From: a virus
Reading direction: 5' to 3' (one strand)
IMG/VR virus record: IMGVR_UViG_3300038809_000021
Coordinates: 7,782 to 71,781 of that record
DNA: 64,000 nt
Both the position numbers and the translations under genes were made by a program. Positions 6,568 to 30,238 of this stretch are shown here, in pieces. A model generated the notes under the pieces. That model searched no databases, had not been told where the DNA came from, and saw nothing but the letters and a program-made list of their open reading frames with translations. Position 1 is the first letter of the stretch; the number at the start of each line of letters is the position of its first letter.

Positions 6568-7838
6568 TGAAAGTCACCTCAGCCAACCCATCCAGCCTAC
6601 GTCCCCTGGTCTCCAAGATCGGTCTGCACCCAAAGCAGGCCGAAGTGTTCCTGGACACAGCCCGATTCCGAGTCGTAGTTGCCGGCCGACGCTGGGGTAA
6701 GACTGCGCTCGCCAAAACGGAAATGATCCAGCGAGCCAAGATTCCTGGACAGAAGATTTGGTACATCGCCCCGACCTATCGGATGGCGAAGCAGATCATG
6801 TGGAACGACCTCAAGGCTTCGATTCCCCGCAAGTGGATTGCGCGGGAACACGAGACCGAAATGTCGATCACCCTGAAAAACGGATCCATCATCGAGTGCA
6901 AAGGCGCAGACAACCCGGATACGCTCCGGGGTGTGGGTCTGAACTTCGTGGTGATGGACGAATTCCAGGACATCCGCAGCGACACCTGGACCACGATCAT
7001 TCGACCTACCCTGGCGAAAGACCGCGGCGAAGCACTGTTCATTGGTACCCCGAAAGCCTACAACCAGCTCTACGAGGTGTATCAGTTCGGCCAAGACGAG
7101 GCTCGCAAAGCCTGGTCCAGCTATCAGTTCCCAACGATCACGTCGCCGTTCATTCCCGAGTCCGAGATTATCGAAGCTCGCCGAGACATGGACCCGCGCA
7201 CGTTCCGTCAGGAATTCGAGGCGTCGTTCGAAACCATGTCGGGCCGGGTTTACTATCCGTTCGACCGAAACGTTCACACCAGCCCGGACATCAAGTTCAA
7301 TCCGCAGCGCCCAATCTGGGTAGGGGTGGACTTCAACATCGACCCAATGTCCGCGGCGATCATTCAGCCTCAGACCAATGGGGAAATCTGGGTGGTCGAC
7401 GAAATCTTCCTGCACAACTCGAACACCGAGGAACTGTGCGAAGAGCTGGAGAAGCGTTACTGGCGTCACATGAGCAACATCACCATCTTCCCCGACCCGG
7501 CCGGTGCTGCACGTCAACACGCCCGCGGTGAATCTGACCTTGAGATTTTCAGGCAGAAGGGGTTCCGTCGAATCAAGTTCCGTCGCAAGCACCCGCCTAT
7601 TGCAGACCGGGTGAACAGCGTGAACCGAATGCTGAAAGACGCGGCCGGCTTCACACGCATGAAAGTGAACAGCGGTTGCACGAACGTGATCGAGTCGCTG
7701 GAGCAGACGCTCTACAAGGCGGGGTCGCGTGACATCGACAAAGGGCAGCGTATGGAACACATCACGGACGCCCTGGGTTATGCGGTGGAACTGGAGTTCC
7801 CGATCAAGAAAATCATCATCGCCGGTCATTCACTATAA
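6567..7838 (+). CDS. terL: Terminase large subunit
   Basis: Walker A AGRRWGKT, Walker B FVVMDE, IGTP coupling motif, RNase H-like GVDF ... DP ... HITDAL. Confidence 0.95.
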   Translation: MKVTSANPSSLRPLVSKIGLHPKQAEVFLDTARFRVVVAGRRWGKTALAKTEMIQRAKIPGQKIWYIAPTYRMAKQIMWNDLKASIPRKWIAREHETEMSITLKNGSIIECKGADNPDTLRGVGLNFVVMDEFQDIRSDTWTTIIRPTLAKDRGEALFIGTPKAYNQLYEVYQFGQDEARKAWSSYQFPTITSPFIPESEIIEARRDMDPRTFRQEFEASFETMSGRVYYPFDRNVHTSPDIKFNPQRPIWVGVDFNIDPMSAAIIQPQTNGEIWVVDEIFLHNSNTEELCEELEKRYWRHMSNITIFPDPAGAARQHARGESDLEIFRQKGFRRIKFRRKHPPIADRVNSVNRMLKDAAGFTRMKVNSGCTNVIESLEQTLYKAGSRDIDKGQRMEHITDALGYAVELEFPIKKIIIAGHSL

Positions 7839-15959: not shown

Positions 15960-16340
15960 ATGGATCTTCTCAACCTCGACGAACTCACCGACATCGAACG
16001 TCAAGTCACCATTCGTGGCGTGAACTACCCGGTCGTCGAACGCAGTATTGGTGTGCTGCTGGACAGCATCAAGGTTGCAAAGGCCGCTGCGAAACGTCGC
16101 AACGGTAAGCAGGACGAAGAGGCGTTCCTGAACGACATGATCAAGACTCTGCGCACGATTCTGCCAGAGTGCCCGGAAGAAGTTGTCCGTGGCCTGTCGA
16201 TGCCCCAGATGGTTGCTGTTCTGGAGTTCTGTAACCAGGACCCGAACAAGATGGCAGAAGAAGCGGTAGCCGAAGCGAAAGCAAATGGCGAATCCGGTGA
16301 CGTTGCCAGCGAGAAGGAAGTAGAGCCGGGAAAAGCGTAA
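15960..16340 (+). CDS. Tail assembly chaperone (lambda gpG analogue)
   Basis: Between tail tube and TMP; ends at a slippery heptamer. Confidence 0.8.
   Translation: MDLLNLDELTDIERQVTIRGVNYPVVERSIGVLLDSIKVAKAAAKRRNGKQDEEAFLNDMIKTLRTILPECPEEVVRGLSMPQMVAVLEFCNQDPNKMAEEAVAEAKANGESGDVASEKEVEPGKA
16328..16334 (+). promoter_or_regulatory. -1 frameshift heptamer G GGA AAA giving a G-T fusion chaperone (~237 aa)
   Basis: In-frame X XXY YYZ just before TAA 16338; the -1 frame is open from 16334 to 16672. Confidence 0.85.
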
Positions 16341-16672
16341 CCGTCGAAGCAATCGACTTCTCCTACGTCTTCTCCCGATTCTGCTGGTTTTACAAATGGA
16401 CCGACGAGCATGTGCTGAAAATGCCTGCTCGTCGTTTTTGGATGATGGAACGGCAAATTGATCGGATCAGGGCAGAGAACGAAATCCGCCTGATCAGTCT
16501 CAACACCCTTTCCCACCCTCCAGAAACCAAAGAGCAGCTCCAGAATATTGAAGCCCACATTGGTCGATTGACTCTGGAAATTGGCGAGAAGTTGAAGGTT
16601 CGACGGAATGTAATTGTTGCACCTGAGCCTGGCGCTGCTGCAAAATTTTTGAAATTGACAGGGCAGGGTTAA
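16334..16672 (+). CDS. Tail assembly chaperone frameshift extension (gpT analogue)
   Basis: -1 frame reads SVTVEAIDFSYVFSRFCWFYKWTDEHVLKMPARRFW...; no independent RBS. Confidence 0.8.
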   Translation, partial: SVTVEAIDFSYVFSRFCWFYKWTDEHVLKMPARRFWMMERQIDRIRAENEIRLISLNTLSHPPETKEQLQNIEAHIGRLTLEIGEKLKVRRNVIVAPEPGAAAKFLKLTGQG

Positions 16673-16675
16673 GAA

Positions 16676-19600
16676 ATGGCATTGGGTCAACTGGTACTGG
16701 AGCTAAAGCTCAACGGCAATGAATTCACCGTGGGGCTGAAATCAGCTTCTGGCCAGTTGGGCCAATTCATTGCCGGCACTCAACGTGCCAACCAAAGTGT
16801 CACACGAGCCAGCGAATCGACGAAGAAGTGGGGCAACGTCCTGCGAGATACCGTCATTGGCCTGGCCCTTGTCCGTGACGCAGTACGAACCCTTGCAGAC
16901 GTGACCGTGGGTTGGCAAGCAGCCATCGTCAAGGTCAACGGCGACATGGAGCGAAGCATCGCTCTGATGAAGGGTTTCTCCAGTCAGCGCGATACCGTAT
17001 CGGCCGCAGCAGAAGCTGTAGGCGACGTGACCAAGCTGCTGCAACGTGCATCGACTTCCCCATTCAGCCTGACCGCGATCACTGACACGTTTGTGAAATT
17101 GCGCGTGGGCGGTGTAGACCCGGCTGCCAAATCGCTGAACACCCTCGTTGACTCGGTTGCTGCCTTTGGTGGTAGCGGCGAGAACTTGAAGCGGGCTGGT
17201 GTAGCGATCCAGCAGATGGCTGGTAAAGGTGTCGTCTCGATGGAAGAGCTGCGTCAGCAACTCGGTGAGGCGGTTCCAACAGCGATCAACGCAATGGCTG
17301 ACGGTCTGGGTACCACCTACGCCAAACTGGTGAAAGAGATTTCCCAGGGCAAGGTGTCCTCGAAGCCAGCCATTCAAGCAATGATGGAACAGCTTGAGCT
17401 GTCCTTCAAAGGCTCCGCATCCAACCTCATGAACACCTGGGGCGGTGCTGTCGCGGGCTTCGAAACTGGCGTGAAGAAAATTGCAGTCGCTTTCGGTGGC
17501 CTGGGTGAAACCGGGTACGAAGATGGCGGCTACCTCAAGACTGTGACCAACGAGCTGAAAGGCTTGACTGCGGTCATGAACAGCCCGGAAATCCTGAACA
17601 GCGCTCGTGAAGTCGGCAAGGCAATCGCTGAGCTGGTGAAGACTGCTGCTGACGGCGCCAAGTGGATCATCGCCAACCGTGACGCGATCTACGGCTGGGG
17701 CAAGGCCCTGCTGTATCTCTGGCTGGCGTTCAAGGGCGCGAGCATCATCGGTTCTGTCATGGGTACCGCGGGCGCTGCAATCAGCAAGCTCTCGATGGCC
17801 ATGATTCAGATGCGTATGCAGGGGCTGAGCGCAACTGCTGCACTGCGAGCGCAAGCGGTTGCGATGTCTGGGTTCAACAGCAGCGCAGCAATCGCAGCCG
17901 GTGGGTTCGCACGTATCGCAACTGGGTCTGCTGCTGCCGGCATTGCTGTGCGCGGTCTGGGCGCTGCACTGGGTGTCATCGCCGGCCCAATCGGCTTGGT
18001 GATCACTCTGGCCGCTTCCCTGGGCCTGGCCTGGTATGAGTCGGCCAAAGGCGCGAAGGCTGCCGAAGATGCAGTGCTTGCCCTCAACGGTGCCTTGACT
18101 GACAACAACCAGCTCAAGATTCTGTCGGACAAGCGCGCCAGCGTGAAAGAGGAATACGACAACGAGTTCGGCAAGAACAAGGGCGTCGTCACCATCGGTC
18201 AATACGGCAGCTACAACACCATCGCTGAGTACCAAGCAGCGAAGGCGAAGAAAGAAGCCGAAATGAAGTCGCTGGACGACACATTCTTCAAGGCCCGGGT
18301 CAAGGTTGCAGAGAACTACGCCAGCCAGGAAGCAGACGCTGCCATTCAAGCGAACGACGCGGCAGTGGGCGAGGTCAGCCGGAACTACACGCTGAACCAG
18401 CGCGACCTGATGAAGCAGTTCACCGAAGAGGCCAAGAAGTCGGGCAAAGCGTTCGACGACGAGGGCTACCGGAAAGCGTTGAAGCAGATCGGCATCGTCA
18501 AGCTGGAAGACGAAATCGACCTGTACAAAGGCGCCAAGAAAGCTGCTGAGGATGCAATCGAGAAGATCGCACCACAGGGCAAGAAGTCGCAGATCGACCA
18601 GACCCAGCTCGTGCAGCTCAAAGCCGCGCAGAAGCAGGTCGAAGCGTACACGACCAAAATTGCCGAAGCCGAAACCCAGATGATGGAGCTGGGCAAGATC
18701 AGCCTGGCTGACACAATAGTCAATGGCAAAGGCAAGGACGACGGCAAGCCGAAGTTCGACGCTCTGTCTATCTGGGTAGACAAGCTCGCTGTGAAGTACG
18801 GCAACCTGACTGCGAAGGCTGAGGAAGCGAACCCGTACCTGGGCGAGCTGGCAGCCGTTGTGGAGTCGTTGGACGGCAAGAAGCTGCCCAACTTCGATGC
18901 TGAGTACGCAAAGGCGCAGAAGCTCGCTGAGGGCTACTGGGCGGCCGAAAAAGCCATGAAGGCGATCACGACTGCGCAGACTGAGTACAAAAACGGCGCA
19001 AGTCGTCTGGACGCGATCCAGGACCTGGTGAACGCGAAGCTGAACAAGGTCGAGAACCTCAACCCATGGGAGAAAGCTTCGGCTGACTCGCAACGGTATG
19101 AGGACGAGCTGCAAGACCTGACCGCTGAGCTGGAGAAGACCAAGAAGGCTGCATACGACGCGCAGGTTGACGGCCGGGGTGAGAGCTTCCTCAAGAAGCT
19201 GGAAGAGGAAGGCGTAGCGACCGCAGCGAAGATGGAAGAGGTTCGTGCGACCATCGAGAAGCTGAAAGTCGCTGACACCGGCAAGAAGATGCGTGAAGAC
19301 GCCGACAGCATCAGCGAAGGTCTGCTGGAGCCGGATGAAAAGGCGCGTGTTCAGTACGATCGGCAAACTGCCTGGGCGGAAGAGTTCTATCGCAACCACC
19401 AGGACCAGTTGAATCAGGACAGCGTTGCGCTGGCAGCCTACTACGACTACCGCGGTAGCCTGGATGCGCAGTTCCAGCGCGACACTGAATCCGGTCTGGA
19501 CGCATGGATTCGCCAGAACAAAGATGCGACTGAGGAATACAAGTCGCTCTGGGGTTCTGCGATGGACAAATTCAACGACACCCTGGTTGACGGGTTGACC

Positions 19601-20218
19601 AGCGGCAAGTTCGAACTGTCCGAGTTCGTGGAATACGTGCTGAAAGAGTTCATCAAGATTCAACTGGCCAAGCAGATGGCGGCCGCAGCAGAAGCCATCG
19701 GTGGTTCGGGTGGCGGTGGTGGGTTGTTGGGCGGTCTGTTCAGCATGGCCGGCAGCTACTTCGGTGGCGGTGGTGGCGGCAATGGGATGGCAGCAGGTTC
19801 TGCTGGCGCAACTTCCTCGAATCTGGGTGCATCGCAAGCCGGCTACAGCAGCAAGTATTTCGCCAACGGCGGCATCATGACCGAGTACGGCGAACTGGCT
19901 TTGAAGAAGTACGCCAATGGTGGTGTTGCTCGCACGCCGCAGGTTGCAATCTACGGTGAGGGGTCGGGTGCAGAAGCCTACGTCCCTCTGCCAGACGGTC
20001 GCACCATCCCGGTTACAATGTCGGGCAGCGGTGGCGGGGAAAGCTCGCAGAAAACGGGGTCGGTACCGGTTGAGGTCAACGTCTACAACCAGGGCGGTGA
20101 ACAAATGGCCGCGACCAGCAACAGTCAGTTCGACGGCGAGAAGATGGTGGTCGACATCATGCTCAAGAAGCTGCAAACGCCTGGTCCGGTTCGTGATGCA
20201 GTTAAAGGAGTCAAGTAA
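16676..20218 (+). CDS. Tail tape measure protein
   Basis: 1180 aa; N-terminal tape-measure domain (SPFSLTAITDTFVKL ... GVVSMEELRQQLGE); C-terminal FANGG ... GEGSGAEAYVPL. Confidence 0.95.
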   Translation: MALGQLVLELKLNGNEFTVGLKSASGQLGQFIAGTQRANQSVTRASESTKKWGNVLRDTVIGLALVRDAVRTLADVTVGWQAAIVKVNGDMERSIALMKGFSSQRDTVSAAAEAVGDVTKLLQRASTSPFSLTAITDTFVKLRVGGVDPAAKSLNTLVDSVAAFGGSGENLKRAGVAIQQMAGKGVVSMEELRQQLGEAVPTAINAMADGLGTTYAKLVKEISQGKVSSKPAIQAMMEQLELSFKGSASNLMNTWGGAVAGFETGVKKIAVAFGGLGETGYEDGGYLKTVTNELKGLTAVMNSPEILNSAREVGKAIAELVKTAADGAKWIIANRDAIYGWGKALLYLWLAFKGASIIGSVMGTAGAAISKLSMAMIQMRMQGLSATAALRAQAVAMSGFNSSAAIAAGGFARIATGSAAAGIAVRGLGAALGVIAGPIGLVITLAASLGLAWYESAKGAKAAEDAVLALNGALTDNNQLKILSDKRASVKEEYDNEFGKNKGVVTIGQYGSYNTIAEYQAAKAKKEAEMKSLDDTFFKARVKVAENYASQEADAAIQANDAAVGEVSRNYTLNQRDLMKQFTEEAKKSGKAFDDEGYRKALKQIGIVKLEDEIDLYKGAKKAAEDAIEKIAPQGKKSQIDQTQLVQLKAAQKQVEAYTTKIAEAETQMMELGKISLADTIVNGKGKDDGKPKFDALSIWVDKLAVKYGNLTAKAEEANPYLGELAAVVESLDGKKLPNFDAEYAKAQKLAEGYWAAEKAMKAITTAQTEYKNGASRLDAIQDLVNAKLNKVENLNPWEKASADSQRYEDELQDLTAELEKTKKAAYDAQVDGRGESFLKKLEEEGVATAAKMEEVRATIEKLKVADTGKKMREDADSISEGLLEPDEKARVQYDRQTAWAEEFYRNHQDQLNQDSVALAAYYDYRGSLDAQFQRDTESGLDAWIRQNKDATEEYKSLWGSAMDKFNDTLVDGLTSGKFELSEFVEYVLKEFIKIQLAKQMAAAAEAIGGSGGGGGLLGGLFSMAGSYFGGGGGGNGMAAGSAGATSSNLGASQAGYSSKYFANGGIMTEYGELALKKYANGGVARTPQVAIYGEGSGAEAYVPLPDGRTIPVTMSGSGGGESSQKTGSVPVEVNVYNQGGEQMAATSNSQFDGEKMVVDIMLKKLQTPGPVRDAVKGVK

Positions 20219-21280: not shown

Positions 21281-21658
21281 ATGGATACCACTGGAGTTGT
21301 TGGGACGCCCTTCAAGTACGGTGGCCGAAGCCTCGCAGATGGGGCTCTCGACTGCTACGGGGTTGTGCGTGTGATGTCTGAGCGAGCAGGGAAGCAGCTT
21401 CCCGAGCGCAGCGTAAGTGAAGATCACAGACTGATTCATGCGATGATGGCGGGTCAGATGAATACCTGGAAGAAGCTCGACCGACCTGTACCGGGTTGCG
21501 TCGTGCTTTTTCGCATCAAGAAGATGCCCTGTCACATCGGCTACATGCTGGACGAGTTCGAGTTTATCCACGCCTGGGAGGGTTCCAATGGGGCCGTCGT
21601 TGAGCAGCTAAGCACCTGGGAAAAGAGAATTGAGGGCTTCTATGAATACGTTGGTTGA
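21281..21658 (+). CDS. NlpC/P60 tail-associated peptidase (lambda gpK-like)
   Basis: GTPFKYGGR ... LDCYG ... HIG ... FIHA catalytic pattern. Confidence 0.9.
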   Translation: MDTTGVVGTPFKYGGRSLADGALDCYGVVRVMSERAGKQLPERSVSEDHRLIHAMMAGQMNTWKKLDRPVPGCVVLFRIKKMPCHIGYMLDEFEFIHAWEGSNGAVVEQLSTWEKRIEGFYEYVG

Positions 21659-24600
21659 GACTGAGGTTGCAAAGCCACAAGTCCTCTTTATCTACATCGA
21701 AAACCCGATGCAGCCGGCAGAGTCGCGTGTTCTGGTAAGCCAGGACTATGACGCTGCGCGCACGCTCTCCGATTGCCTGGGTCCGCTCGAAGGCGACTGG
21801 GCAGTTTCTGTCTCTGGTCTGGTGATCCCTCGTGATCAGTGGCCAGAAGTTTTCCTGCGCGAGAACGACTGCATCGTGGTTGCCCCGCTGATTCTGGGCG
21901 GTGGTCAAGGCGGTGGCGGTAAGCAGATCATGCGACTGGTGGCCCTGGCCGCCCTGACCTACTTCACAGCAGGTGCTGCGGCCGGTGTTGCAGGTGCAAT
22001 CGGTGTGACCTCTGCCGGTGGTATCGCTCTGGTGGGCGCGGGCATGATCATGGCCGGTACGATGGCGATCAACGCCCTCTTGCCGCCTGCACAGCCGAAA
22101 GTCCCAACCAGCGGCAACGACTACGACTCCAGCCCAACCTACGGCATCGACGGCCCGAAGAACATGAGTACCCGGAGCATCCCGGTACCGGTGATCTACG
22201 GTGAGTGCTGGTTCGCGGGCAACTTCATCCAGTCCTACATCGACAACGTGGGCGACGACCAGTATCTGAACCTGCTGATCAACGTCGGTGAAGGGCCAAT
22301 CGAAGGCATTCAGGAAATCCAAGTCAACGATCAGCCGATGAACAACTTCGTCGGCGTCGAGACCTGGTTCCGTGACGGCTCCGAAAACCAGCAGATGATC
22401 CCGTACTTCGACGACATCATTGTGCCGGTCAACCGCAGTGTGAACCTGACCAACGCTGTGTACACCGTTCACACTGTAGAGTCGCCGGTCGATCGCCTGC
22501 GCCTGGACTTCGTGCTGCCAGCCGGTTTCAACCACCTGGACGACGAAGACGGCATGGTTGCGACAACCGTGCAATGGACTGCTGAGATTCGTGAAGTCGG
22601 TACCGGCGCATGGCAGCCGTTCACCGGTGGCGATCGTGTGCTGACTGTCAGCGGTAAGCAGATGTCGGCCGCACGCCGCAGCTATTACAGCCAGACCCTG
22701 GATCGGAACAAGCGCTACGAGATTCGCTGCATCCACAACCAGGCGACTGACGACAGCAACACCAGCAACAAGGTGACGCTCTCGGACGTCAACTACATCA
22801 CCTTCGACGACATGACCTACAAGCACACCGCGCTGCTGGGCATGCGTATCAAGCTGTCCGATCAACTGAACGGTCTGCCAACGGTCAAGTATCGCGTCAA
22901 GGGTCGCAAGGTTCCGGTCTACAACGTGCTGACCGGCAACTACGTCGAGACCTGGACCGATAACCCGGCCTGGATCACCCTCGACGTTCTGATGAACAAG
23001 CGCTACGGCGGCCAGTTGTCTGCCAACCGCATGAAGATGGACTACTTCCGCAAGTGGGCGACCTTCTGCACTCAGAACAACCTCAAGTTCAACGGCGCCA
23101 TCGACCAGCGCACCAACTTGTGGGACGCCTGCGCACCAATCTGCAAAGTGGGCCGGGCGCAGCTCGTTCGCTCGGGTACCAAGTTCCAGGTGTCGCTTGT
23201 TCGCAAGACCACACCGGTTCAGTTGTTCTCGATGGCCAGCGTCAAGAAGGGTTCGCTCTCCATCGACTGGATGGCCAGCGACGAGCGCGCCAACGAAGTG
23301 CATGTGAGCTACTTCGACAAGGGCGACCAGGGCAAACAGAAGACCGTCATCGTCGCCAACGAAGCAGCACGCGAGCGCGGTGAAGAAGCCCGGCCGACCG
23401 AAGTGACTCTGTACGGTGTGGACAACATCGATCAGGCCACTCGTGAAGGCACGCTGGCCATGAACATGCAGCAGCTCTTGCAGACCATCAGCTTCGAAGC
23501 ACCAGTCGAAGCGATTGCCTGCACCCTGGGCGATGTCATTGCGATCCAGCACGACATGCCTGACTGGGGTCAAGGCGGCTTCACAGAAGTGGGCAGCACG
23601 AAGACCAAGCTTGTCATTGATCACCCTGTCTCCATGCCTCTGGGCGGCAGCTACGTGGTGCAGGTTCGCCACGACAGTCTGTTGCAGGGCACCTGGGAAG
23701 CAGAAGCGGTCGTGGGCAACATCGTCGTGCCGACTGGCCCGTTCAACGTCCAGATGTTTGATCGGTACCGTCGTCTCGTGACACCTGGCACCGGCAAGGA
23801 CTACGAAATCGAAGAGCCTGTGATTGACCAGTTCGGTCGTCACGGTCTGCGGTTGTCTTCGACTGCCGGTATCAAAGTGGGCGACACGATTCAGTTGTGG
23901 GACACCAACGTCATTGAGACGCGCAACGTCGCAGCCTTTGACGGGGAGACTATGACGATCACCCCGACTGTCCCATTCAGCGCTGTCCCGCGTGCAGAGA
24001 GCCCGTGGGCATTCGGTCTGTATGAGTCTGTCACCCAAATGCTGACTGTGATGAACATCAGCGGCAAGGATGACATGTGGAAGCAGATCAGCGGCATCGA
24101 GTACAAGGACGACGCCTACGATGACACGGTGATCGACTACCGCCCTGACCCAACCAACACCAGCCCTGACATGCCGGTGGTGAACTTCAACGGGTTCAAG
24201 GAACGTCGCTACCTGATCGGCGCCAGCTACACGTCCGACATCGAAATGACCTGGGCTTCCGCGGACATCAATTACAGCTACTGCGAAGTCCACATCAAGA
24301 TCGACGACGAGTCCTGGAAGTTCATGGACGCGAACGCCACCTTGTACACCCTGATCAACATCAGCTCGGGCAAGATTCAGCTCAAGCTGGTACCGGTGAC
24401 CATCGAAGGCTTCAAACCGAACTTTGGATCCGTGCCGACCTACACCTACGAAATCGTGGGTGGGGTTCCTCGTGTCCCACCAGTGCCGCTCAACTTCCGC
24501 CCAGGCGTGATCACCGGCGACATCATCGAGCTGCTGTGGGGCGACCTGGATGCCTGGTCTGCCGCGCAGAACGTCTACAAGTACGAGGTGTTTCACGCCG

Positions 24601-25565
24601 GGTACAAGGACGCCCGCATCGAAGATGCTCAACTGATCGCAGTGACCGGGAACAACCACTACCCGCACATCGGTCTTGAGCGCCTGAGCTGGCACACATA
24701 CTGGTTGCGTGCGACAAACACCCAGGCCAAGGACAGCAAGTCGCAGTTCGCCGGCCCGTTGAGCTTGCAGGTGATCGACAACGACCCATACGGTCTGGTC
24801 GACCTCACCAACATCGCCAACGACCTGCGCGAAGCAATCGACTATCCGAAGATTCTCGACGACCTGTCGGTGATCGTGGCCAACGCTACGACCAAGCTGG
24901 AAGAAGCGACCGACGAACAGAAGCAGGAAGTGTTCAACCGTGAGCAGGCGGTCGGTGATGTCCGGGCCTACGTGAACGAGACAGTCGGTGCAATCGCAGA
25001 CGAGAACGAAGCCCAGGCAATCCGCCTGACTACCCTCGAAGCGACCACCAACGCCGCGACACAGGCCAAGATCGACGAGCTGACCCAAGTGGTCGTGAAC
25101 GGCGACAGCAGCCTCGCGCAGCGTATCTCGCTGATGCAGGTGAAGTTCGCTGACGACCTCGCTGCCGGCTTGCTGGTAGAGCAGACAGCTCGTGCTGACG
25201 CAATCAGCGCCATCGCATCGCAAGTGACCACGCTGAACAGCACGGTCGGTGAGAACAACGCCAGCCTGCAACAGACCATGAAAGTGGTTGACGGCATCAG
25301 CGCCCAGTACACGCTGCGGGTGGACATCAACGGCATCGTCTCGGGCTTCGGTCTGGCAACGGGCGCCGGTGGTACTTCTGAGTTTGCGATCATGGCAACC
25401 CGGTTCAAGATTTACGGACCAGGCCCAGGCGGTACCGTCGTGAAGACTCCAGTCTTCTCGGTGAACACTGAAACCGGTGTTGCGTACCTGCGAAACGCGG
25501 TGGTTGGTGACTTGTCGAGCGACAACTACATTTCTGGTGTGTCGGGGTGGTGCCTAAAAAAGTAG
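21642..25565 (+). CDS. Central tail fibre / host specificity protein J (gpI-J fusion), short form 1307 aa
   Basis: Ubiquitin-like gpI N-terminus, PVPVIYGE, FN3-like region, coiled coil and DUF1983-like C-terminus (YTLRVDINGIVSGFGL); stops abruptly at GWCLKK. Confidence 0.92.
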   Translation: MNTLVETEVAKPQVLFIYIENPMQPAESRVLVSQDYDAARTLSDCLGPLEGDWAVSVSGLVIPRDQWPEVFLRENDCIVVAPLILGGGQGGGGKQIMRLVALAALTYFTAGAAAGVAGAIGVTSAGGIALVGAGMIMAGTMAINALLPPAQPKVPTSGNDYDSSPTYGIDGPKNMSTRSIPVPVIYGECWFAGNFIQSYIDNVGDDQYLNLLINVGEGPIEGIQEIQVNDQPMNNFVGVETWFRDGSENQQMIPYFDDIIVPVNRSVNLTNAVYTVHTVESPVDRLRLDFVLPAGFNHLDDEDGMVATTVQWTAEIREVGTGAWQPFTGGDRVLTVSGKQMSAARRSYYSQTLDRNKRYEIRCIHNQATDDSNTSNKVTLSDVNYITFDDMTYKHTALLGMRIKLSDQLNGLPTVKYRVKGRKVPVYNVLTGNYVETWTDNPAWITLDVLMNKRYGGQLSANRMKMDYFRKWATFCTQNNLKFNGAIDQRTNLWDACAPICKVGRAQLVRSGTKFQVSLVRKTTPVQLFSMASVKKGSLSIDWMASDERANEVHVSYFDKGDQGKQKTVIVANEAARERGEEARPTEVTLYGVDNIDQATREGTLAMNMQQLLQTISFEAPVEAIACTLGDVIAIQHDMPDWGQGGFTEVGSTKTKLVIDHPVSMPLGGSYVVQVRHDSLLQGTWEAEAVVGNIVVPTGPFNVQMFDRYRRLVTPGTGKDYEIEEPVIDQFGRHGLRLSSTAGIKVGDTIQLWDTNVIETRNVAAFDGETMTITPTVPFSAVPRAESPWAFGLYESVTQMLTVMNISGKDDMWKQISGIEYKDDAYDDTVIDYRPDPTNTSPDMPVVNFNGFKERRYLIGASYTSDIEMTWASADINYSYCEVHIKIDDESWKFMDANATLYTLINISSGKIQLKLVPVTIEGFKPNFGSVPTYTYEIVGGVPRVPPVPLNFRPGVITGDIIELLWGDLDAWSAAQNVYKYEVFHAGYKDARIEDAQLIAVTGNNHYPHIGLERLSWHTYWLRATNTQAKDSKSQFAGPLSLQVIDNDPYGLVDLTNIANDLREAIDYPKILDDLSVIVANATTKLEEATDEQKQEVFNREQAVGDVRAYVNETVGAIADENEAQAIRLTTLEATTNAATQAKIDELTQVVVNGDSSLAQRISLMQVKFADDLAAGLLVEQTARADAISAIASQVTTLNSTVGENNASLQQTMKVVDGISAQYTLRVDINGIVSGFGLATGAGGTSEFAIMATRFKIYGPGPGGTVVKTPVFSVNTETGVAYLRNAVVGDLSSDNYISGVSGWCLKK

Positions 25566-25600
25566 GGTCCATCACCCTGGAATATGACCCGGGTGATGGG
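25556..25600 (+). promoter_or_regulatory. Putative programmed -1 frameshift signal: A AAA AAG plus downstream stem-loop
   Basis: Heptamer 25556-25562 in frame just before TAG; 9-bp stem CCATCACCC (25569-25577) / GGGTGATGG (25591-25599); the -1 frame is open to 26173. Confidence 0.75.
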
Positions 25601-26173
25601 AACCTGATTTCTGAGGCTTTCGATGCAGAGTTCCACAACGCTCTGATCACCGGAGACATCAGCGCCCTGGAGGGAACATTCCAGGGCAGGCTGGACGTGA
25701 ACGCAATCGACGCAGTGAGCCGGCTGAACATCGCCGGCCGGGCAGTAGCAGTGACCCAGGTGTTTGAGTCGGCCGGGATCGTGGGTCAGACAGAGGGCTT
25801 CAACGATGATGGCGTCTATCGAACCTTGATGGCCATCGTCATCGAAGTCCCCTACGGGAATGGGAGTGGTTGCTGGGCTGACGTGATGATGCAGTACCAT
25901 GTGGTCGACTATAAGGGCGACGAGAACGCCGGTTTCCCTTGTCAGTACCGCATCTTGCTGGATGGTGTGCCCTACTTCACGAGCATCGCGGTGCCGTTTG
26001 GTAGCTTCTTCAACCGAAGCTGGGATCCAAACTTCATCCACCACATGCTGCTGTACCTCAGTGCCGGTCAGAACCATACCGTCGCGATTCAGTTCAGGTG
26101 GTTTGACCGAGACACAAACGTGTATCCTCGGTTCAGCGACCGGCGAATCCGAGTAGACATCATCAGGAAGTGA
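25562..26173 (+). CDS. J C-terminal tip module 1 (frameshift extension; fusion ~1510 aa)
   Basis: DAEFHNALITGDISALEGTFQGRLDVNAIDAVSRLNIAGRAV is the segment that normally follows the DUF1983-like region of J proteins. Confidence 0.75.
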   Translation, partial: VGSITLEYDPGDGNLISEAFDAEFHNALITGDISALEGTFQGRLDVNAIDAVSRLNIAGRAVAVTQVFESAGIVGQTEGFNDDGVYRTLMAIVIEVPYGNGSGCWADVMMQYHVVDYKGDENAGFPCQYRILLDGVPYFTSIAVPFGSFFNRSWDPNFIHHMLLYLSAGQNHTVAIQFRWFDRDTNVYPRFSDRRIRVDIIRK

Positions 26174-26174
26174 C

Positions 26175-26711
26175 ATGGCATTTGACACAACGAAAAACTA
26201 TGCCGAGTTCGGGAACGCCTTCTTTCGAGGGCGTTTGAAGGGCGCCACTGGCACAGCAAGATTCAAGCTCACAGCAGGGTCGGTGAATGCGGTCGATACG
26301 ATCAACATCGCCGGCAAGGCCGTGACCTATGACTGGCTGATTCAGTTTGGTGCGGCATCAGGGAGCGCAGGAGCTGTTCTCTATCAGACCGTGATCGACG
26401 TGATCGACGACGGCGTGTACATCGAATTCCTGGTCTACTGCGACACCAGAACCATTCTGCTGGACGGATCGTATCAGCCACTTGGCTACAACCGAAGCTT
26501 CTGGATCGACGGGGTGATGCAGCCGAACTATGTTGGCCACGATCCTGGGTTCAAGATTTGCCCGTACAACGCAGTTGTCCCGCTCGCCCGCGGTCAGCAC
26601 GTTCTGCAAATTCGAGCCAACCAGCGAAGCAACGGTCAACTGCCGTCCCCAAACTCGACAGACGCCTACATCTTCTGCCGATACATTCGACGCACAGGGA
26701 GCGACATCTGA
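26175..26711 (+). CDS. Stand-alone J-tip-like module 2
   Basis: YAEFGNAFFRGRLKGATGT ... VNAVDTINIAGKAV, paralogous to module 1. Confidence 0.75.
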   Translation: MAFDTTKNYAEFGNAFFRGRLKGATGTARFKLTAGSVNAVDTINIAGKAVTYDWLIQFGAASGSAGAVLYQTVIDVIDDGVYIEFLVYCDTRTILLDGSYQPLGYNRSFWIDGVMQPNYVGHDPGFKICPYNAVVPLARGQHVLQIRANQRSNGQLPSPNSTDAYIFCRYIRRTGSDI

Positions 26712-27286
26712 TGGCTGGTGAAGCCGAAGCGCAATTCAACACCAACTGCTGGATTCGAGGACGCATGGTCGGGATGACCGGCACCTTCTCGGGCACCTTC
26801 AAAGCGGAAGAGGTGGACATCATCCAGTACGCCAACATCCGCAATGGCGCGGTGTCGTCGTATTCGCAGTTCAGCCGCAAGAAGTTCCCAGGCGAAACAG
26901 CGATCCAAGACATGACCTGGGTGGTCGCACCGGTACCCAATGCGCCAGAGGGGACTCTCGTGGCGTTCACCATCCCAGTGAGCGTTCGAATCCAGGGTAC
27001 CGGCGCGATCATTCGGTTTCGACCGCCAAGGGTCACGCTGTGGCGAAATGGCGTGGTCATTCATGACGAAGTGTGGCGACTGCCCCTGAGCTATGACAGC
27101 CTGTTCTTTGCCCTGCGCTATATCGACCTCGACGTTTCACGGACAGAGCCGGTGACGTACCGAATCCTCATGCAGAACGGGGAGTGCGATAAGCGCTATC
27201 AGAACTCAGGCTCGGAGTTCTACACCGTGGACAGCCACAAGATTTCTAGCAAGGGCAAGGTGCTTACTAGCATCCGTAAAAAGTGA
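26711..27286 (+). CDS. Stand-alone J-tip-like module 3
   Basis: TGATG coupling; EAQFNTNCWIRGRMVGMTGTFSGTFKAEEVDIIQYANIRNGAV, paralogous to modules 1 and 2. Confidence 0.75.
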   Translation: MAGEAEAQFNTNCWIRGRMVGMTGTFSGTFKAEEVDIIQYANIRNGAVSSYSQFSRKKFPGETAIQDMTWVVAPVPNAPEGTLVAFTIPVSVRIQGTGAIIRFRPPRVTLWRNGVVIHDEVWRLPLSYDSLFFALRYIDLDVSRTEPVTYRILMQNGECDKRYQNSGSEFYTVDSHKISSKGKVLTSIRKK

Positions 27287-28162: not shown

Positions 28163-30238
28163 ATGGCGTGGTATACCGAAGGGACGATCAGTCTCGTTCA
28201 GAATTCGAAGGTCGCTACCGGCACCGGGACCAAGTTCCTGGCCAACACTCGCTATGGCGACATCCTGTTTGTCAACGGCGAAGTCTACGAAATCATGGGC
28301 GCAGTCAATGACTTGCAGCTCAATCTGGTCAAGCAGTACACCGGCCCGACACAGCTCGAACAGCCGTACTCGCTGATCCGCAACATGACCAACGCCAGCA
28401 ACTATGACCTGATGCGGGCCATCGACGAAATGCTAGGCGAGCGCAACACGCAGCTCAACCAGTTCACAGTCTGGTCCAGCGGTACCGTCAATGGCGGCCC
28501 AGAAGGCGACGGTCGGTACCCTCTGACCAACCGCTTCGGTGTGACGCAGCTCGTGTACTGCCCGGCCAAGATGGCGCAGTTGTCCGGTACCCAAAATCAA
28601 ATCGACCTGACCCAGATTCAAACCGACATCACCAATATCCAGGACCTGCTCTCTGACTACGGCACTCTTGAGGCCAAGCTCAATGCTCTGGTGGGCGTGG
28701 ACCTGGCCAAGCTGGGCGGTCAGCCGAAGAACGCGAAGCTCACTCAGATCAGCGCCATTGAAATGAAGCTGAACCAGGTGCTGGTTGCCAGCGGTGAAGA
28801 GACCTTCACTGTGATGGACATCAGTGACCGGGGCAAAGCTCTGATCGCTGCACAGACAGCGGCTGAAATGCGCTCTGTGATGGGCGTAGCAACGGGCGGG
28901 ACCGGTTCGGGTAACTCGGGTAGCGGTGGTGTACCAGGACGTCGTGTAGCGATTCTGGGGACGTCTCTGTGCCAGTTGTGCAACTACGGTACCGCGACCG
29001 AAATCTCGATGACCAACCGTTCCTGGATTGGCTGGGCCGCAGTGCTGACCAACAACAAGATCATGACGCCAGTCTGGTATGACCGCGGTCTGTACCCAGG
29101 CTGGGAAGTGTCCGATCACGTTGGCGATCCACGAGGCTTCCGCGGACTGAACGCCGGTGTATCGAGTGACCACGCCGACAACATCTTCGACCGGGCCAGC
29201 TACCTGGTGGCGAACGTGGACTGCGAGTTCGTGGTCATGGACAGCGGCATCAACGACATCGGTGACAACAGCCTGACCAGCGATGCGATCAGCGCCCTTC
29301 GTGAGAAGACGGTCGACTACCTGCTCGCCAATGGGAAGACGGTGATCATGCTGACGCTGCTGAGCCCGGCTGCCACGTATTACCCAATCGGTTCGACACA
29401 GCGCCGCAAGATGGAGCGTGTGAACAACCGTGCCCGCGAGTTCGCCTTGCAGCGGAAGAACATGTACCTGTTCGACTGGACCGAGTACATGATGGACTTC
29501 AACGATCCGAACGGTCAGCCAAAGCCGCTGCACTCGGTCGACGGTCTCCACTTTGCGCCCCGCGGTGCCTTCGCTGTAGGTAAAGGTCTGGCCAAGCTGT
29601 TCAGCACCTTCTTGCCGGACGCACCGCGTGTAGTCTGGTCGCCAGAGGACATCTACGACTCGGTGTTGGCGCCCCAGGGCAACCTGATGACCAACAGCTT
29701 CTGCTACGGGCAGAGCGGTACGCTCGATGCCGGGGCAACGGGCAACGTCGCAAACGGTATGCGTGGCGGGATCAACAGCGGTGACGGCAGCGCGTTCTAC
29801 GAGAAGCTGGCCCGCGCAGACGGTCGTGGTCAGTGGCAGCAGATCACGATCACACCTGGCACCACCGATACGCAAGCGCTGTTCCGTGTGACGGACATCA
29901 CCCACGGTCTTCCAGAAGGAACCTGGGTCCAAGGTAGCGTCGAGCTGGAATGTGACGCCTGGGAATACTGGGCTGGCATCAACCTGCAAATGCGTGACCT
30001 CGCGGCCGGCGGCCTGACTTCGCACGCACTGAAATCCTACTCAGGGTTCCCGATGCCGGCCGAAGCCTGGTCTGGTACCATCATGACCCCAGCTTTTCAG
30101 GTGAAAGCTGGCGGACAATTGCGGTGGCGCTTCGAAGCGACCGCCCTGGGTAACGCAGTCGGCAAAGGCGTTGTACGAGTGGGCGCTGTTGGTCTTCGCG
30201 TAACAATCGATCCGAAAATCATCGTCAACGCGAGGTAA
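28163..30238 (+). CDS. Tail spike/fibre 1 with SGNH/GDSL esterase domain
   Basis: Virion-anchor N-terminus MAWYTEGTISL...; SGNH blocks ILGTSL, NAGVSSD, DSGIND, DGLHF. Confidence 0.8.
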   Translation: MAWYTEGTISLVQNSKVATGTGTKFLANTRYGDILFVNGEVYEIMGAVNDLQLNLVKQYTGPTQLEQPYSLIRNMTNASNYDLMRAIDEMLGERNTQLNQFTVWSSGTVNGGPEGDGRYPLTNRFGVTQLVYCPAKMAQLSGTQNQIDLTQIQTDITNIQDLLSDYGTLEAKLNALVGVDLAKLGGQPKNAKLTQISAIEMKLNQVLVASGEETFTVMDISDRGKALIAAQTAAEMRSVMGVATGGTGSGNSGSGGVPGRRVAILGTSLCQLCNYGTATEISMTNRSWIGWAAVLTNNKIMTPVWYDRGLYPGWEVSDHVGDPRGFRGLNAGVSSDHADNIFDRASYLVANVDCEFVVMDSGINDIGDNSLTSDAISALREKTVDYLLANGKTVIMLTLLSPAATYYPIGSTQRRKMERVNNRAREFALQRKNMYLFDWTEYMMDFNDPNGQPKPLHSVDGLHFAPRGAFAVGKGLAKLFSTFLPDAPRVVWSPEDIYDSVLAPQGNLMTNSFCYGQSGTLDAGATGNVANGMRGGINSGDGSAFYEKLARADGRGQWQQITITPGTTDTQALFRVTDITHGLPEGTWVQGSVELECDAWEYWAGINLQMRDLAAGGLTSHALKSYSGFPMPAEAWSGTIMTPAFQVKAGGQLRWRFEATALGNAVGKGVVRVGAVGLRVTIDPKIIVNAR

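Follow-up and report, generated by a model that had tools for sequence, protein, structure and literature searches.

The gene for the central tail fibre J in a 64,000-nucleotide stretch of viral DNA (IMG/VR virus record IMGVR_UViG_3300038809_000021, positions 7,782 to 71,781; the whole stretch is called the window below) stops inside a conserved fibre motif, and what is most likely the remainder of the protein is encoded in the overlapping -1 reading frame. The window covers the greater part of a Nickievirus-like Pseudomonas syringae siphophage, whose closest public relative is phage hairong (86% nucleotide identity across the region), with nickie, phiK7B1, Nican01 and ZY21 as additional relatives. 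On the evidence of sequence comparison, the end of J is probably the site of a -1 programmed ribosomal frameshift of the dnaX/IS911 type, a reading held here with considerable confidence, which would yield a J-short of 1307 residues and a J-long of 1510 residues, both counted from the ATG at 21642. The proposal was made by a sequence-only reading of the window, whose observations are borne out in all particulars by the junction itself, which comprises the following features.

21642-25565, + strand: J, central tail fibre or tip attachment protein, zero frame (open reading frame list, Pfam and phrog_31)
25544-25550, + strand: G-rich run GGGGTGG resembling a Shine-Dalgarno (SD) sequence, a possible upstream frameshift stimulator
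25556-25562, + strand: slippery heptamer A AAA AAG, in the zero-frame X XXY YYZ register
25563-25565, + strand: zero-frame stop codon TAG, adjoining the heptamer, which terminates J-short
25562-26173, + strand: -1 frame extension of 203 codons plus TGA (last sense codon AAG at 26168-26170, TGA at 26171-26173)
25568-25600, + strand: putative stimulatory hairpin, with 5' arm (U)CCAUCACCC at 25568-25577, loop at 25578-25590 and 3' arm GGGUGAUGG(G) at 25591-25600

The zero-frame codons at the 3' end of J are TCG GGG TGG TGC CTA AAA AAG TAG (25542-25565), giving a protein that ends ...SGWCLKK, with the stop directly after CTA AAA AAG as had been described. The first codon after a -1 slip is GTA (25562-25564), from which the frame reads on GTA GGG TCC and stays open for the full 203 codons that the earlier reading had counted, as far as the TGA at 26171-26173. 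The heptamer lies in the correct register, and the 9-base-pair (bp) stem-loop said to begin 6 nucleotides downstream is also there: its core pairs CCATCACCC (25569-25577) with GGGTGATGG (25591-25599) around a 13-nucleotide loop, after a 6-nucleotide spacer, and a wobble between U25568 and G25600 can lengthen the stem to 10 bp, the spacer then being 5 nucleotides. The predicted fold has a minimum free energy of -24 kcal/mol (z -2.3). AAAAAAG is not enriched in the window, which holds 5 such heptamers where 7 are expected by chance, and the significance of this one rests on its register, position and conservation rather than on mere occurrence.

In the proposed mechanism, ribosomes on CUA AAA AAG would run into a 10-13 bp hairpin located 5-6 nucleotides ahead, at the mRNA entrance, and a tandem slip of two tRNA-Lys on A AAA AAG (from AAA AAG to AAA AAA) would be stimulated by the hairpin, perhaps with help from the G-rich run. 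The fraction of ribosomes that slipped one base back would read on through GUA GGG UCC, and unshifted ribosomes would terminate immediately at UAG. J-short would then end inside the conserved fibre motif GW.[IL].K.G, which J-long would complete, gaining a short stalk and a jelly-roll head at the position of the receptor-binding domain of lambda gpJ; the transframe junction predicted in J-long is ...GWCLKKVGSITLE; ...SGVSGWCLKKVGSITLE. That ribosomes slip here, with what efficiency and product ratio, that the SD-like run plays a role and that both isoforms are in the tail tip are the parts of this scheme that we infer.

The split is shared by the five annotated relatives, in which a tail protein is followed by an overlapping 'hypothetical protein', and a 43-nucleotide block at the site is identical across all five. 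A search with the downstream open reading frame (ORF) gave 23 protein clusters of about 200-210 residues each, down to 47% identity, all of which start M..KKVGSITLEY. On 12 contigs of these clusters a J of 1302-1381 residues overlaps the extension ORF by 16-19 nucleotides, and ten bases, AAAAAAGTAG, are unchanged. The same ten bases, with their run of six A residues (A6), occur throughout, in six isolates of Nickievirus and some 15 contigs from metagenomes. Not one of 19 unique junctions departs from them, nor do 4 more contigs that a DNA pattern permitting A5 to A8 retrieved from IMG/VR and JGI, every one of which is A6. The TAG after the heptamer is likewise invariant, and the -1 ORF is open in all relatives, over 196-216 codons.

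These observations bear directly on the reading of the split as artefact or decay, that is, as a homopolymer assembly error, a recent frameshift mutation or A6/A7 phase variation that has left the downstream frame a dying remnant. Homopolymer length errors are indeed common in some sequencing chemistries, but about 20 independent assemblies, from isolates and metagenomes, all have A6, and the pattern tolerant of A5-A8 found A6 alone, which rules out assembly error, recent mutation and A7 relatives. The sequence-only reading had named A7 in close relatives as a ground for refutation, and none has it; the conservation that it wanted examined was found as well, since in some 20 independent genomes the heptamer, the stop and the stem show either no change or a compensated one. 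Substitution rates moreover place the -1 ORF under purifying selection, with a median ratio of nonsynonymous to synonymous substitutions (dN/dS) of 0.28, and of 0.067 against phage hairong, at saturated dS. The artefact or decay reading is effectively refuted.

The junction is also constrained at the nucleotide level. In a codon alignment of 17 sequences, scanned over 366 codons, pairs that share a residue differ in its codon in a proportion of about 0.45 over J and the extension, but of 0.09 at codons -7 to +5, where the scan has its minimum. Between lineages dS ranges from 0.8 to above 3, and the ten invariant bases are therefore far from the neutral expectation. A change of AAA to AAG, which is synonymous in the -1 frame and costs only a Lys to Arg replacement at the end of J-short, never occurs among the relatives, yet residues beside the heptamer do vary (Cys, Ala or Ser and Leu or Ile in J; Pro, His or Ser in the other frame).

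Beyond the heptamer, a structure of 10-13 bp is found 5-6 nucleotides to the 3' side in the relatives as in the window, conserved beyond coding needs. In most relatives the stem is 12-13 bp long with a folding energy of -22 to -28 kcal/mol, and over all relatives the folds span -18 to -28 kcal/mol, with z as low as -6.1. When the sequences are aligned, 95.8% of stem cells are paired, as against 35-55% in controls with the 3' partner displaced by 1-3 columns. One relative (L011, 4507-4568) carries a compensatory replacement of a C-G by a U-A pair, in which the 5' change is synonymous and the 3' change converts Gly to Ser. In two others (L010, 35-96, and L024, reverse strand, near 6723) an Arg-Gly-Asp sequence is kept but recoded synonymously, so that the usual 3' arm is lost, and a relocated 3' arm, GGGGUGGUGG or GGGGUGAUGG, three codons farther 3', pairs with the unchanged 5' arm; the distance from the start of the stem to the heptamer is therefore the same. 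The hairpin has thus been preserved by three evolutionary solutions: the usual arm, a compensatory pair, and a relocated arm coded by different amino acids. In nickie-type sequences (most relatives; L002, 5301-5314), a second small hairpin, GUGAUCGAAUCAC, adjoins the main stem on its 3' side and may belong to a larger structure or a pseudoknot; it is absent in the window and in hairong.

The same features bear on transcriptional slippage, in which RNA polymerase would insert an extra A in the A6 run so that a fraction of mRNAs code the fusion in frame, with the same protein outcome. The homopolymer that this would need is present and invariant, and genome sequence alone cannot separate the two processes. 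Efficient slippage by bacterial RNA polymerase, however, requires runs of about 8-9 or more, as in Thermus dnaX and insertion sequence (IS) elements, and A6 falls short of that length. A G conserved behind the A6 run, a heptamer in exact X XXY YYZ register and a hairpin that starts 5-6 nucleotides to the 3' side all characterise ribosomal rather than transcriptional signals, and slippage by the polymerase is a very improbable source of the fusion.

That the -1 frame encodes the rest of J is indicated by single-frame homologues. The J proteins of Rogue1, HBM00, P0060 and PDB entry 9ze4 align over the junction with no frame break, in agreement with the earlier statement that J proteins normally continue into an AEF.N...G...GTF segment. 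At the junction itself the motif is GWAIDKAGSAELNNA in Rogue1, GWSINKDGG in HBM00 and GWAFRPNGIMEINGT in PDB 9ze4, as compared with GWCLKK followed, across the frame change, by VGSITLEYD in the window. The uninterrupted motif of Rogue1, SNNYVQGSQGWAIDKAGSAELNNATVRG, with which those of HBM00 and of PDB chain 9ze4_N are alike, is split in the window in exact register, as SDNYISGVSGWCLKK in frame 0 and VGSITLEYD...AEFHNALITGD in frame -1. When the fusion is read through with an X at the break, the junction being at residue 1311, the Phage_Tail_Tip match runs to residue 1317 and the phrog_31 match to residue 1332. A word-based search for long in-frame homologues of the extension gave nothing, a negative that reflects limited sensitivity, because an exhaustive hidden Markov model profile search later found a homologous C-terminal domain in frame at the end of P0060, P0085 and P0088, which Pfam confirms as members of the J family. 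The alignment of P0060 with the window fusion begins 107 residues ahead of the junction and ends 67 residues beyond it (E 2e-15). An IMG/VR protein-pattern search with the extension had no match, and Pfam and PHROGs assign no family to the extension, or to the two ORFs that follow it (ORF2 and ORF3), when each is searched alone.

The extension comprises a stalk motif (AEFHNALITGD...GTFQGRL...LNIAGRAV) and a head predicted to adopt a TNF/C1q-like jelly-roll. In an AlphaFold2 model the head (residues 170-314, about 145 residues) is a jelly-roll with a predicted local distance difference test score (pLDDT) of 71-96; the monomer model of the junction and fibre part, with a pLDDT of 27-46, is uninformative. 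Searched with Foldseek, the segment as a whole has its top matches in the lambda gpJ fibre, 8xcj_F and 8xck_F (E 1.5e-8). Structural similarity of the head to PLTL lectin, the Pgp3 C-terminal domain, a cyanophage fibre CBD, C1q and TNF ligands, at Z of 8-9, is only moderately above the stated noise of the tool. The model agrees with the pattern of receptor-binding fibre heads, in which a jelly-roll beta-sandwich of some 130-145 residues caps a trimeric stalk, and most likely the extension continues J as a stalk plus a TNF/C1q-like head of putative receptor-binding type.

Several points weigh against a programmed frameshift. No virion proteomics for Nickievirus was found in the literature searched. 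An Rfam search of the junction returned noise only and no match to a frameshift element. Covariation in the hairpin is sparse, with double changes at 2 pairs, a number that 12 of 500 shuffles reach, and because the count is small it is supporting rather than decisive. The upstream element is a further point. The dnaX layout reportedly consists of a heptamer, a stem-loop and a purine-rich upstream element 10 nucleotides away, and the earlier reading saw the same three parts here; GGGGTGG is present at 25544-25550 as it said, but lies 5-8 nucleotides from the heptamer rather than 10 (the stimulatory distance in dnaX being about 10-14), and is confounded with the Gly-Trp codons of J, which also force it. 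The run is nearly conserved and partly variable among relatives (GGGGTGG, GGGTGG, GGGTTGG and TCTGGGTGG), and may act as a frameshift stimulator, to judge from its sequence.

The remaining counter-arguments concern initiation in the -1 frame. The G-rich run overlaps, besides the Gly-Trp codons, -1 frame GTG codons at 25547 and 25550, and a GTG stands in that frame 6-9 nucleotides before the heptamer in every relative. The extension might then be a separate gene, ORF1, begun by reinitiation or de novo initiation at one of these GTGs, to give a free 22-kDa tip protein that docks non-covalently on the J trimer, with A6G and the hairpin kept for dual coding or mRNA stability. Termination-reinitiation needs no SD sequence, and every public annotation calls two genes. 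This explanation deserves weight because two free-standing paralogues follow the extension.

26175-26711, + strand: ORF2, 178 residues, with its own ATG and an AGGAAG SD sequence, starting 9 residues before the AEF.N motif
26711-27286, + strand: ORF3, 191 residues, with its own ATG and a GGGAG SD sequence, starting at the A.F.N motif

Both are related to the extension (ORF2: BLASTP E 4e-9, hhalign 97.9%, E 5e-13; ORF3: BLASTP E 2e-5, hhalign 97.4%, E 1e-11), and the best Foldseek match of the AlphaFold2 model of ORF2 is again the lambda gpJ fibre, at the tip (E 2e-4). They are free-standing and start at the same motif, which makes a free ORF1 product conceivable, and some ORF2 starts also lack an SD sequence and rely on coupling. 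ORF2 and ORF3 are present in all relatives, however, always with an ATG and a normal stop-start junction, and no lineage has gained an ATG for ORF1. The Gly-Trp(-Cys) codons of J generate the GTGs as a by-product, and anti-SD pairing to their 5' side (-1.5 to -3.0 kcal/mol) is about that of the background (mean -2.0 kcal/mol), unlike that of ORF3 (-3 to -8 kcal/mol) and of most ORF2 copies. With separate genes, conservation in the region would be highest in two tails, one C-terminal and one N-terminal, and the invariant A6G would go unexplained, since the change of AAA to AAG would cost J only Lys to Arg. Nor would separate initiation account for compensatory and arm-switch changes that hold the hairpin at a distance typical of frameshift sites, or for homologues that are covalently continuous at the junction. 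A separately initiated tip protein is thus improbable, and the programmed frameshift is preferred. The distal parts of the extension, ORF2 and ORF3 are all hypervariable, and the three heads are likely exchangeable modules.

The identity of J rests on its domains and its neighbours. Pfam finds FNIII-A_GpJ (2.5e-17), Phage-tail_3 (4.9e-9) and Phage_Tail_Tip (8e-5), in that order, and the best-matching PHROG is phrog_31, 'central tail fiber J' (2e-172); the ORF is open from a TTG at 21630, with an ATG at 21642. The gene lies 3' of the tape measure, L-like and K-like genes, and the order on the + strand is tail assembly chaperone, tape measure, small tail genes, a K-like NlpC/P60 gene, J, three small ORFs, and esterase and fibre genes; in the relatives the K-like NlpC/P60 gene is immediately 5' of J. 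No + strand promoter or terminator was found between J and the following ORFs. Two features upstream complete the tail genes discussed here.

15960-16340, + strand: G-like ORF of the tail assembly chaperone, with the slippery sequence G GGA AAA at 16328-16334
16676-20218, + strand: tape measure protein (Pfam)

At the chaperone the -1 frame is open for 114 codons, to a TAA at 16670-16672 just 5' of the tape measure ATG at 16676, and 15960-16672 is a canonical G/G-T tail assembly chaperone frameshift. With the J site, the tail operon would contain two recoding events, each of its own type. Near its N-terminus (21855-22241; residues 76-204, numbered from 21630) J has a match to phrog_32, the lambda I-like 'tail assembly protein' (E 2.4e-12). 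Between J and the K-like gene no separate I gene is seen, and this J appears to be a fusion of I with J. Farther downstream, 28163-30238 encodes a 691-residue protein with a weak GDSL/SGNH esterase match (Pfam E 5e-7, under the gathering score), whose counterpart in the relatives is labelled GDSL hydrolase or lipase, and a 955-residue tail fibre gene comes next. The source genome, at 94,093 bp as compared with about 112 kb in the relatives, may be incomplete. Its tRNAs, all outside the window, are a tRNA-Met, a tRNA-Asn and one with an odd anticodon loop, and no phage-encoded tRNA-Lys able to tune slipping is present in the 94-kb genome.

The mechanism itself is classical. Like Escherichia coli dnaX, which makes tau and gamma, the J site has an A AAA AAG heptamer at which a tandem tRNA-Lys slip is expected, a stem-loop about 6 nucleotides to the 3' side and, to the 5' side, a candidate counterpart of the purine-rich element that pairs with the anti-SD. 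The two have no sequence similarity and differ in outcome: at dnaX a shift leads almost immediately to a stop and to the shorter product, whereas at J the unshifted ribosome would stop at once and the shifted one would add 203 residues. In IS911 and other IS3-family elements (orfA-orfAB), an A AAA AAG close to the 3' end of the first ORF joins it to a second one that overlaps it in the -1 frame, with assistance from an upstream SD sequence and a downstream structure. Heptamer and overlapping -1 ORF are the same at J, as is a possible independent start of the downstream frame near the site, but the proteins are unrelated and IS911 regulates a transposase, not a virion protein. Lambda G/G-T is, like the shift proposed at J, a -1 frameshift in phage tail genes by which two proteins sharing their N-terminus are made in a fixed ratio; the chaperones are absent from virions, however, and their heptamer is G GGA AAG/A, with no conserved strong hairpin, whereas the J site would recode the tip fibre itself.

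Recoding past a stop that adds a C-terminal domain to a fraction of structural subunits has been described for SPP1 gp17.1*, Listeria PSA Cps and Tsh, Q54 and lactococcal 936 TpeX. These are high-copy major capsid or tail-tube proteins, whereas J is present in three copies and the added domain is a putative receptor-binding head. Similar recoded C-terminal extensions are those of T7 10A/10B and of Lactobacillus A2, and lactococcal phage Q54 is said to have a frameshift also in its receptor-binding protein. Lambda gpJ (PDB 8XCJ, 8XCK) has the same order of domains, FNIII-A_GpJ, Phage-tail_3, Phage_Tail_Tip, stalk and C-terminal head, but in lambda J, as in Rogue1, HBM00, P0060, P0085 and P0088, the whole chain is coded in one frame. 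The sequence-only reading had been unfamiliar with frameshifting in J genes, and the literature searched describes none in J or central-fibre genes, the Nickievirus papers being silent on it; its use here is, on that literature, without an earlier report.

A more speculative idea concerns the stoichiometry of the tip. Because the end of J-short coincides exactly, within the motif, with the start of ORF2 and ORF3 (GW..KK in the one, AEF.N in the others), and because C1q/TNF folds form heterotrimers, the tip may by analogy be heterotrimeric and C1q-like, with one J-long chain bearing a covalent head and two J-short chains completed in trans by ORF2 and ORF3, the frameshift setting the stoichiometry. 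This arrangement is tentative and on balance unlikely. If true, a tip with one covalent and two non-covalent heads would have three specificities, or alternative tips would occur on different virions, and in either case it would represent a new way of building an asymmetric or polyvalent receptor-binding tip on a three-fold fibre.

If the frameshift is confirmed, the central tail fibre, which is the host-recognition organelle of lambda-like siphophages, would be one of the few phage proteins that recoding is known to produce in two forms, here through a textbook three-part signal that is easy to manipulate. With two free paralogous heads encoded alongside it, the system would be a tractable one for questions of stoichiometry and asymmetry at the three-fold tail tip. 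All Nickievirus annotations would have to be corrected, as the receptor-binding-type head is now listed as a separate 'hypothetical protein'. Nickievirus phages are biocontrol candidates against Pseudomonas syringae, the agent of kiwifruit and stone-fruit canker, and the identity of the polypeptide at the tip accordingly matters for how their host range is interpreted.

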